Source: a virus
Lineage: Duplodnaviria; Heunggongvirae; Uroviricota; Caudoviricetes
DNA length: 44,878 nt
Direction: 5' to 3' (one strand)
Virus record (IMG/VR): IMGVR_UViG_2563366802_000013
Span: 1-44,878 of that record
Shown here: in pieces, positions 1,790 through 3,136 of the stretch
Layout of the letters: every line of letters begins with the position of its first letter
How positions within the stretch are numbered: position 1 is the first letter of the stretch
The notes under the pieces: model-generated
Seen by the model: the letters and a program-made list of their open reading frames with translations, nothing else
What the model was told of the DNA's origin: nothing
The model's database searches: none
Program-made: the position numbers and the translations under genes

Positions 1790-1805
1790 AATTCACCTCA
1801 CCAAA

Positions 1806-1825
1806 TACTGTTCATGCATACAGTA
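1806..1825 (-). promoter_or_regulatory. LexA (SOS) box TACTGTTCATGCATACAGTA
   Basis: Both half-sites match the CTGT-N8-ACAG consensus (TACTGT/ACAGTA); lies just upstream of the 79-aa/UmuD'-like operon start, overlapping a TATACT -10-like hexamer on the minus strand. Confidence 0.6.
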
Positions 1826-2018
1826 TATTTTATCGATGAGATGGATCAAGTGACTAAAGAGAAAAAACCACCTGAGTGGGTTTTAAAAGTCAGACAATCA
1901 GCAGAGGGTGATGGAAATCACACGCCATGACCACCTCTTACCGTAACTACTAATGCCTGCGGATTTGCCACAATTGCTTAAGCGTTGTAAACTTTTTCTC
2001 TTTAACTAAAGCCATAAA

Positions 2019-3107
2019 ATGGAAAACAAAAAAACAATATACAACATTCAGATGCTGCGCTTTGTTGCTGCCGCACTGGTGGTGTTAGCGCACGCCGAGA
2101 TAGGCATTTATGATGGGGCAAAATCCGAGCCACTAGGTGGTTTTGGTGTGGATATATTTTTCATCATTAGCGGATTTATTATGCCATACATCGCGTATGG
2201 AGGTGGTGGATACAACGGCGTGTTCAATGTTGGTCCTGTTGGTTTTTTTATGAGGCGTGTCGTTCGGGTGGTGCCTGTTTATGCAATTATTACAGCACTA
2301 TGTGTTTTTTCTGCTTATCTTGTTTCCTATCAGATCAGTAGTCCAACACCGCCAATAGCATTTTGGTGGCCTGCAGCAAAGATAGATTTTTGGTGGTACT
2401 TTCAGAGCGTTACATTCACTCACTGGGATAGACCTCCTATTCTGGGTATTGGCTGGACTCTACAATATGAGTTTTTGTTTTACACTTGCTTTGCATTATT
2501 TATAGCCACCAAACTTTCAAAAATTGAATATGTGGAAATATCATTCATTACAATCCTCATATTGTCAAACATGCTTCTGTCTTATCCTGGTTTTTACGTA
2601 TTCATTCATAAATATCTGCCTTTTATTGAGGTCGCAGCAAAGCCAATAATGGTTGAGTTTGCTATGGGCATGTTTATGTATCGCCTTTATATATCTGGCG
2701 TAATGCTGTCTAAAAACACAGCAATTATAATACTATTATCTTTCATCCCTTTATTTTATTGTCTGGAAAGCAACTGGATAACAAGAGGATTGGGTGGAGA
2801 GTGGCATAGGCCTTTAGTTTGGGGGTTCTTTGCCTTTTATGGCGTTTGGGCAGCAATTAGCCTTGAAGGTAAAATACCAGCGCCAAAGACTTTAATATTT
2901 CTCGGCGATGCCTCATACAGTATTTACTTAATGCATGGGCTTATTACGGCATGGATGGCTCATATCTTTGTGGTCAGTGGATTAATCAAACACATCAACA
3001 TTTATGGATACTATGTCATTTACTTTGCGCTAAGTTGCGCGCTAGGCTCTGCAGCTCATATTTATATTGAAAAGCCTTTCGCCAAATACTTTAGGAGATT
3101 CTTTTAA
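2019..3107 (+). CDS. Acyltransferase family 3 membrane protein (OafA/OatA-like polysaccharide O-acetyltransferase); lysogenic-conversion moron
   Basis: 362 aa, multi-pass hydrophobic; N-terminal motif QMLRFVAAALVVLAHAE typical of acyltransferase_3; markedly AT-rich relative to flanking phage DNA; between int module and tailspike. Confidence 0.85.
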   Translation: MENKKTIYNIQMLRFVAAALVVLAHAEIGIYDGAKSEPLGGFGVDIFFIISGFIMPYIAYGGGGYNGVFNVGPVGFFMRRVVRVVPVYAIITALCVFSAYLVSYQISSPTPPIAFWWPAAKIDFWWYFQSVTFTHWDRPPILGIGWTLQYEFLFYTCFALFIATKLSKIEYVEISFITILILSNMLLSYPGFYVFIHKYLPFIEVAAKPIMVEFAMGMFMYRLYISGVMLSKNTAIIILLSFIPLFYCLESNWITRGLGGEWHRPLVWGFFAFYGVWAAISLEGKIPAPKTLIFLGDASYSIYLMHGLITAWMAHIFVVSGLIKHINIYGYYVIYFALSCALGSAAHIYIEKPFAKYFRRFF

Positions 3108-3116
3108 TTTAAATAA

Positions 3117-3136
3117 CGGGGCTGTACTAAGCCCCG
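3117..3136. terminator. Bidirectional intrinsic terminator hairpin between convergent acyltransferase and tailspike genes
   Basis: CGGGGCT-gtacta-AGCCCCG stem-loop flanked by A/T-rich runs on both sides. Confidence 0.5.

Follow-up and report, generated by a model that had tools for sequence, protein, structure and literature searches.

A putative lysogenic-conversion O-acetyltransferase gene paired with a predicted esterase tailspike in an Escherichia coli argW prophage

What does an AT-rich acyltransferase gene do near the integrase end of a temperate phage genome, convergent with a tailspike, and which polysaccharide would its product modify? The question is raised by a tailed-phage genome (Caudoviricetes; IMG/VR record IMGVR_UViG_2563366802_000013) of 44,878 nucleotides, the whole of which we call the window. 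The window is an Escherichia coli siphovirus-type prophage at argW, cut to gene boundaries (from the ATG of the integrase gene, int, to the stop codon of xis). It carries a gene for a protein with a single acyltransferase-3 domain, here termed AT3, and a first-pass annotation had described this gene as an OafA-like acetyltransferase that probably O-acetylates the surface polysaccharide of lysogens. We consider it probable, if some way from assured, that AT3 is an Oac-type lysogenic-conversion O-acetyltransferase acting on the O-antigen recognized by the neighboring esterase tailspike. Lysogenic-conversion O-acetyltransferases are an already known and ordinary kind of surface-changing phage gene, and it is the company kept by this one that warrants attention. 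The argument turns on the following features.

2019..3107, plus strand: AT3-only acyltransferase of 362 aa, a putative polysaccharide O-acetyltransferase (Pfam PF01757, phrog_3333, motifs, hydropathy)
3117..3136, no strand assigned: hairpin CGGGGCTGTACTAAGCCCCG, a probable bidirectional terminator (7-bp GC-rich stem; scan of both strands)
3143..5725, minus strand: tailspike of 860 aa, with Tail_spike_N, a central body and an SGNH/GDSL domain
2014..5212, no strand assigned: low-GC mobile block of AT3, terminator and tailspike body (blastn sharing; GC 42.3%)

The assignment of the gene to the acyltransferase_3 family is borne out by a Pfam match that takes in essentially the full length of the open reading frame (ORF) at 2019..3107: Acyl_transf_3 covers aa 8-342 of 362 (E 3.9e-22; 79.2 bits vs a cut-off of 31). 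Among PHROGs families, phrog_3333 ('O-acetyltransferase') matches over the full length (E 9e-62), such that the best families are those of polysaccharide O-acetyltransferases rather than of a non-polysaccharide kind. Homologues carry the source names ExoZ or OafA/YrhL. These matches establish family membership, and the residues expected of an active enzyme are in place: R14/H25 (R-X10-H) and R80/R83 (RXXR) are invariant across 19 homologues, with identity down to 16% (Sf6 Oac). The R-X10-H motif in transmembrane helix 1 and the RXXR motif in transmembrane helix 3 are essential in OafB and Oac (PMC9833829). Ten non-overlapping hydrophobic 17-mers, counted by Kyte-Doolittle hydropathy scan only, fit the ~10-helix AT3 fold.

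One part of the original description did not survive. OafA and OafB share with the window protein the AT3 domain, R14/H25 and RXXR at equivalent positions, and are known for O-antigen modification and phage resistance, but they are AT3-SGNH fusions of ~600 aa or more. The window protein ends at aa 362 after its AT3 domain, with no fused SGNH domain and no GDSL/SGNH match in Pfam; 'OafA-like' is therefore a misnomer, and an OafA-like fusion was rejected for lack of a C-terminal SGNH domain by Pfam. The match to phrog_6705 (~647 positions) is weak and covers only aa 8-183 of AT3. The AT3-only architecture is instead that of Oac, ExoZ, Lag-1 and WecH (review PMC9558356).

Oac of phage Sf6 is the natural point of reference. 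It too is an AT3-only membrane protein of similar size (333 aa vs 362 aa here), and the RXXR region aligns, but pairwise identity is 28% over 157 aa (E 1e-5), from which we take AT3 and Sf6 Oac not to be orthologous. Gene order is also alike: int, acyltransferase and terminator, next to the tailspike, with IntS-type integrases at ~75% nucleotide identity. The same int-acyltransferase-terminator order recurs at Sf6 int-oac and in an E. coli relative (locus L006), in agreement with the conversion-slot layout first proposed. The more specific placement of AT3 between int and tailspike stands in so far as AT3 occupies the conversion position beside the tailspike; on its other side, an orf79-humD operon (1159-1789) separates int from the spacer ahead of AT3. 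The Sf6 system differs in its host O-antigen, and in its tailspike, an endorhamnosidase, where the window spike carries an SGNH esterase domain.

The association of AT3 with such a spike extends well beyond the window. AT3 homologues 91%, 91% and 75% identical occur in Morganella, E. coli and Proteus, and in every one of these contexts that was read AT3 is convergent with a GDSL-domain tailspike, while the upstream neighbor varies (int, a theta-subunit-like gene, or a HumD operon). AT3 has its own hairpin, and the slot that it fills, beside the tailspike near the int end, is the same in at least 20 related loci. Two E. coli prophages at other integration sites pair an 88%-identical spike with a different, second AT3 allele (55% identity). 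In Buttiauxella, where the AT3 copy is likewise 55% identical, the adjacent spike is broken into fragments, the C-terminal one of which shows 84% identity; a further AT3 clade, at 62% identity, adjoins Mu-like tail fibers. These comparisons establish the genomic anatomy of the locus. Close AT3 relatives are absent from 50,697 phage records, among which tblastn gave two matches at 28-29% identity. A scan of genome contigs yielded for the most part distant chromosomal genes of the ExoZ-like kind, since the collection is limited to one genome per species. Two independently degraded prophages (L021 = NZ_CP031833.1 1450188-1457502, and L007) have kept int, AT3 and tailspike intact with most of the phage deleted; in strain 2452, the remnant adjoins a truncated dsdX.

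What moves between these genomes is larger than the acyltransferase gene. AT3 has a G+C content (GC) of 39.6%, and 37.7% at third codon positions (GC3), against 53.8% GC for 5726-44878, and the 11 lowest-GC of 876 sliding 1089-bp segments all overlap the AT3 locus (mean 0.527, sd 0.041). The tailspike body is equally distinctive, at 34.1% GC3 vs 70.5% in the next tail gene. The compositional foreign island is thus AT3 plus tailspike, not AT3 alone; the earlier claim that the gene is poorer in GC than its phage surroundings fits the position of the lowest segments, but the adjoining tailspike body is just as atypical. By blastn, a Morganella siphovirus-like prophage (L003) shares 2014-5464 of the window at 83.7% nucleotide identity, and a Morganella P22-like prophage (L004) shares 2014-5212 at 85.1%. 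The block of AT3, terminator and tailspike body turns up in prophages of E. coli, Morganella and Proteus, whether the context is that of a siphovirus or P22-like. Its left edge, at 2014, falls 5 bp before the AT3 ATG, which places the spacer outside the mobile block. AT3 does have an upstream intergenic region of 229 bp, as first annotated, but the region is not its own in the sense of traveling with it.

Within the block, AT3 and the tailspike gene converge on a gap of 35 bp containing the hairpin, which a scan rates as terminator-like on either strand. The hairpin is kept at the same place in eight related loci with differing stems (CGGGGCT/AGCCCCG, AGGGGTG/CACCCCT, AAAGGGTGG/CCACCCTTT), a covariation that supports a real hairpin structure. 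The bidirectional terminator of the first-pass annotation is upheld as a probable one.

The tailspike supplies the clue to a substrate. Pfam recognizes Tail_spike_N, the N-terminal tail-attachment domain (E 1.1e-18), and Lipase_GDSL_2 (E 3.9e-9; 37.7 bits vs a cut-off of 32.9), the latter within an SGNH domain at aa 536-727 (~3545-4120) whose catalytic blocks I, III and V, as read from alignments, are G540-D541-S542, G604-V605-N606-D607 and D719-x-x-H722 (DNIH 719-722). From these motifs, the tailspike body is predicted to be an SGNH acetyl-esterase. The same Ser, Gly-x-Asn and Asp-x-x-His blocks are found in the esterase tailspikes and receptor-binding proteins typified by G7C gp63.1, the petal domain of epsilon15 gp20 and Klebsiella SGNH receptor-binding proteins, but a PDB search detected no sequence similarity to them within the esterase domain of the window spike. 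PDB matches are limited to the spike N-terminus and include 4qnl, through which aa 57-132 resemble the N-terminal tail-attachment domain of gp63.1. Among cultured phages the spike body has no close relatives, with five matches all at or below 30% identity; a homology search with the C-terminal 360 aa found two proteins only, and an AlphaFold2 model of the esterase region built on a 3-sequence alignment reached a predicted local distance difference test score (pLDDT) of 39.7. Close homologues do exist in prophages: the Morganella L004 spike has a P22 head-binding N-terminus, after which its protein sequence agrees at 85% of positions with aa 130-860. A third form, of 982 aa, adjoins lysis genes in E. 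coli YZLc4-1 (NZ_CP123260.1 1314777-1317725). The SGNH receptor-binding body accordingly sits on three N-terminal adaptors, namely Tail_spike_N (siphovirus-like), P22 head-binding (Morganella) and the YZLc4-1 form; tailspike modules have clearly been exchanged here, in association with a single O-antigen type.

That O-antigen type emerges from the hosts. All complete E. coli genomes with the spike body (7/7) carry the 'S88 variant O45' O-antigen cluster, which is present in 37/5426 complete E. coli genomes. The seven comprise four with the full cassette and three more with the spike body; the cluster is as annotated by RefSeq (wzx WP_015953008.1, wzy WP_001284322.1) and encodes its own acetyltransferase, WP_000790108.1. 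The seven genomes span at least three insertion contexts (argW, the yciB region and the yfgI region), and the chance of the association, estimated for three independent events, is ~(37/5426)^3 = 3e-7. The association argues that the tailspike is specific for O45-S88 which, joined to the logic of conversion modules, makes the O45-S88 O-antigen the most probable acceptor for AT3. We take this O-antigen to contain O-acetylated 6-deoxy-L-talose.

How, then, might the gene work in a lysogen? A promoter of its own within the 229-bp spacer would drive AT3 in the opposite sense to the late genes, and the transcript would stop at the hairpin shared with the tailspike gene. The protein would take acetyl from cytoplasmic acetyl-CoA through a pore lined by R14/H25 and R80/R83 and O-acetylate a sugar of the host O-antigen on the periplasmic side, with S88-variant O45 the likeliest substrate. 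Having been acquired and exchanged together with the receptor-binding body of the tailspike, the conversion enzyme would address the same polysaccharide as the receptor-binding enzyme. The pay-off would be altered phage adsorption to lysogens, excluding the same or competing O-antigen-specific phages, along with a changed O-epitope. Expression in lysogens, acetyl as the acyl group, the O-antigen as acceptor and the exclusion phenotype are steps that we infer.

A related clade shows that AT3 proteins of this lineage can keep other company. At ~39% identity, AT3 homologues from Enterobacter-type prophages and one Pseudomonas genome (P. fluorescens) have a 371-aa SGNH protein encoded after them in almost all the loci read (L026 6001-9706; L121-L134, L036, L037); the SGNH protein of the Enterobacter asburiae copy (L026) carries a signal peptide, and the P. 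fluorescens genome has the same AT3-SGNH gene pair. Most loci of the clade include a convergent 507-aa spike, which in L026 is SGNH-free by Pfam. The Enterobacter-type pair looks like a 'split OafA' conversion system, although we know of no characterization of these two-gene modules. They resemble the window in the slot after a HumD-like gene and in being convergent with a Tail_spike_N spike, but differ in their division of labor: theirs is a co-transcribed 371-aa SGNH gene beside an SGNH-free 507-aa spike, whereas the window has no separate SGNH gene, and its spike SGNH domain lacks detectable similarity to theirs. Might AT3 and the tailspike SGNH domain together form a split OafA here as well? 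This was rejected on compartment grounds, as the spike is a late virion protein assembled in the cytoplasm, without a signal peptide. Nor does any similarity link its SGNH domain to the partner protein that the related clade secretes. From the comparison of sequences, the association of the AT3 lineage with SGNH proteins appears to be old and to take two different forms.

Several observations weigh against an O-antigen conversion enzyme in the window. The nearest characterized enzyme, Sf6 Oac, stands at ~28% identity, and a PDB search with the AT3 protein gave no match. The association with O45-S88 is seen for the tailspike and not for the AT3 gene itself, and one O45-S88 E. coli prophage has the spike body with no adjoining AT3 gene. 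With the same module present in Morganella and Proteus, the acceptor might be a glycan of broader distribution than a single E. coli O-type. The secreted SGNH partner of the ~39% clade is missing here, which makes the self-sufficiency of AT3 an assumption. Upstream of the AT3 ATG, the window and the Morganella copies have no conserved sequence in common, shuffled sequence yields at least as many promoter-like sites as this region, and AT-rich foreign genes in E. coli are often silenced.

A more ambitious version of the conversion hypothesis is a 'lock and key' pairing, in which AT3 installs exactly the O-acetyl ester that the tailspike SGNH domain hydrolyses. Lysogens would be shielded from other O-antigen-dependent phages, while virions bearing the window spike could still penetrate, or detach from, acetylated O-antigen. 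Such a function would explain why the AT3 and spike genes are kept together, and the two are indeed repeatedly adjacent despite recombination, across two AT3 alleles, two virion types and four genera. Precedents can be cited: G7C gp63.1 shows that esterase tailspikes can depend on O-acetyl and act processively (review PMC10743462), and an interplay of acetylation and deacetylation has been proposed for Klebsiella temperate phages (PMC13123978). Even so, we regard a matched write/erase pair as unlikely, and give the same low weight to its corollary, a co-selected cassette that passes whole from siphovirus- to podovirus-type prophages or back, and from one enterobacterial genus to another. The O45-S88 cluster has an acetyltransferase of its own (WP_000790108.1), and the spike may therefore not need the phage enzyme to obtain its substrate. 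A conversion gene beside a tailspike is a general arrangement, as in Sf6 and P22, for which shared substrate specificity alone could suffice; a spike-bearing prophage without AT3 exists; and the esterase activity of the spike is itself a prediction, with the low pLDDT noted above. Phage epsilon15 follows the opposite logic, in that it combines an esterase spike with the loss of receptor O-acetylation on lysogeny (PMC9558356; the epsilon15 preprint shows the converted O-antigen), where the window prophage carries an acetyltransferase.

Alternatively, AT3 may acylate some other glycan (enterobacterial common antigen, colanic acid, capsule or peptidoglycan) or transfer a non-acetyl group such as succinyl. 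AT3 proteins serve many acceptors and donors (review PMC9558356), homologues of this one are source-named for ExoZ, an exopolysaccharide acetylase, and a module found alike in E. coli, Morganella, Proteus and Buttiauxella might reflect a glycan that all four possess, for example enterobacterial common antigen. The strict tie of the partner spike to a single E. coli O-antigen type, and a position and layout that match known O-antigen conversion modules, argue the other way, and we rate a different acceptor or donor as distinctly improbable. Less probable still, to the point of being hard to credit, is that AT3 is a silent or functionless passenger in E. coli, hitch-hiking with the tailspike body in recombination. 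The lack of a conserved promoter in common with the Morganella copies, the weak promoter match, the want of a clear Shine-Dalgarno sequence and the AT-rich foreign composition would all suit a passenger. A passenger would hardly be expected to retain an intact ORF, with catalytic residues invariant in copies diverged to 55% and 39% identity, to persist intact in two decayed prophages, or to recur as the exact protein in 249 blocks of an assembly collection; moreover, two divergent alleles fill the same slot, which implies repeated selection of AT3 there. An Oac-type conversion enzyme directed at the O-antigen that the spike recognizes thus remains the reading we prefer.

Where the prophage begins and ends bears on a separate claim of the first-pass annotation, that the 229-bp spacer is the likely home of the phage attachment (att) site, attP. 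Further features are needed here.

1..1158, plus strand: IntS-type tyrosine integrase (Pfam Phage_integrase, Phage_int_M, Arm-DNA-bind_3)
1159..1789, minus strand: orf79-humD operon (HumD/UmuD'-like protein of 129 aa at 1159-1548; 79-aa protein at 1550-1789)
1806..1825, no strand assigned: LexA (SOS) box TACTGTTCATGCATACAGTA, perfect, 17 bp upstream of the orf79 start
1965..1993, plus strand: candidate sigma-70 promoter of AT3, TTGCCA-17-TAAACT (consensus scan, 9/12; ~25 nt before the ATG)

Comparison with strain M37H, where the complete prophage sits between argW and dsdC, shows that base 1 of the window is the int ATG and base 44878 the stop of an AlpA/xis-like gene. An identical integrase protein is found on many E. 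coli contigs (317 blocks of the assembly collection index it), as is an identical AT3 protein, and the contig gene order is yfdC - tRNA-Arg(CCT) - int - humD - orf79 - AT3 - GDSL tailspike. Copies of the att core, TGCAGGGGACRCCAT, flank the window on both sides, one ahead of int and the other past xis. At the lysogen junctions, attL has the core TGCAGGGGACGCCAT, formed by the 3' end of argW ~160 bp before the int ATG, and attR has the core TGCAGGGGACACCAT, 75 bp past the xis stop.

The appeal of the spacer as attP is understandable, given that it is AT-rich and non-coding and that int has no free spacer at its 3' end, but the idea has next to no chance of being right. The run from int through humD, orf79 and the spacer to AT3 and the tailspike is uninterrupted in every lysogen examined, a contiguity incompatible with attP at 1790-2018; the attL and attR cores are at argW upstream of int and downstream of xis; and no copy of the core occurs anywhere in the window at up to 2 mismatches. 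Since the window was trimmed to gene ends, attP would be made from the two flanks that were cut away. The contents of the spacer are also accounted for by the LexA box and promoters. HK620, whose int gene, like those of Sf6 and CUS-3, is ~75% identical in nucleotides to that of the window, has an annotated attP with the same core between its xis-like genes and int. More broadly, HK620, Sf6 and CPS-53 have in common with the window prophage the att core TGCAGGGGAC(A/G)CCAT, the argW target, an attP between an xis-like gene and int, and arm-type GGGTAAAA repeats at both ends; the arrangement shows no relevant difference, and it puts attP outside the window. The corrected position matters for anyone delimiting or engineering this prophage. 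Between a T-run hairpin (44612-44635), which it closely follows, and the xis/AlpA-like gene, TTTCAGGTTCGATTCC at 44643-44658 matches the argW T-arm at 15/16 positions. No other stretch of 12 nt or more in the window is shared with argW, and this one may have been left over from an att sequence of tRNA origin.

The genes and signals between int and AT3 form a small unit of their own. The 129-aa protein is a HumD equivalog (NCBIfam NF051876, E 2.5e-66), the operon matches phrog_811 and phrog_3893 (the latter orf79), and humD has no UmuC partner in the operon. Against 0.01 matches expected, the window has this one LexA box, and the promoter scan places a promoter-like site of the minus strand (1849-1822) across it; in strain 20A24, a similar box lies upstream of an S24/Y-family polymerase operon. 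A perfect LexA box ahead of orf79 points to a second moron under SOS control. The E. coli prophage L006, the closest E. coli relative, lacks orf79-humD and passes from int to AT3 directly. Orf79-humD is best described, on this sequence evidence, as a second moron inserted between int and AT3 and predicted to be SOS-regulated. The spacer itself (1790-2018; 229 bp, GC 38.9%) contains the proposed AT3 promoter, which L006 keeps as TTGCCA-17-TAGAAT; as the count of promoter-like sites is at the shuffled level, the 1965-1993 site stays a candidate. Rfam gave no match over 1100-3300. A perfect 12-nt inverted repeat (TAAAGAGAAAAA / TTTTTCTCTTTA, 1855-1866 / 1993-2004, 126 nt apart) flanks the candidate promoter. 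With regard to phase variation, the spacer holds only one GATC, and an A7 run at AT3 codons 4-6 was seen by eye.

Elsewhere in the window, an HNH ORF lies among the distal tail genes (8641-9108), with a 155-aa HNH_3 product in L017/L018 of the same lineage. The E. coli relative L006 has HNH/NUMOD4 homing-endonuclease-like ORFs at 14614-15078 and 15625-16158, which other relatives lack. The pattern suggests mobile endonuclease insertions among the distal tail genes.

What would follow if AT3 does acetylate O45-S88? The S88-variant O45 O-antigen is that of the O45:K1:H7 neonatal-meningitis clone and is named as a virulence determinant in the reference cited in PMC7685785, at least as cited there. 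An unrecognized variant of this O-antigen would then exist, with relevance to serotyping, vaccines and phage susceptibility, and the neighboring spike would provide a probe or esterase specific for O45-S88 and ready for use. An acetyltransferase found time and again beside a receptor-binding protein of the acetyl-esterase kind would offer a concrete example of the acetylation/deacetylation interplay proposed for temperate phages. Should the write/erase relationship itself prove true, AT3, as compared with the related clade and its secreted SGNH partner, would have become self-sufficient or would use a host factor, and either outcome would bear on how AT3-only enzymes complete acyl transfer.

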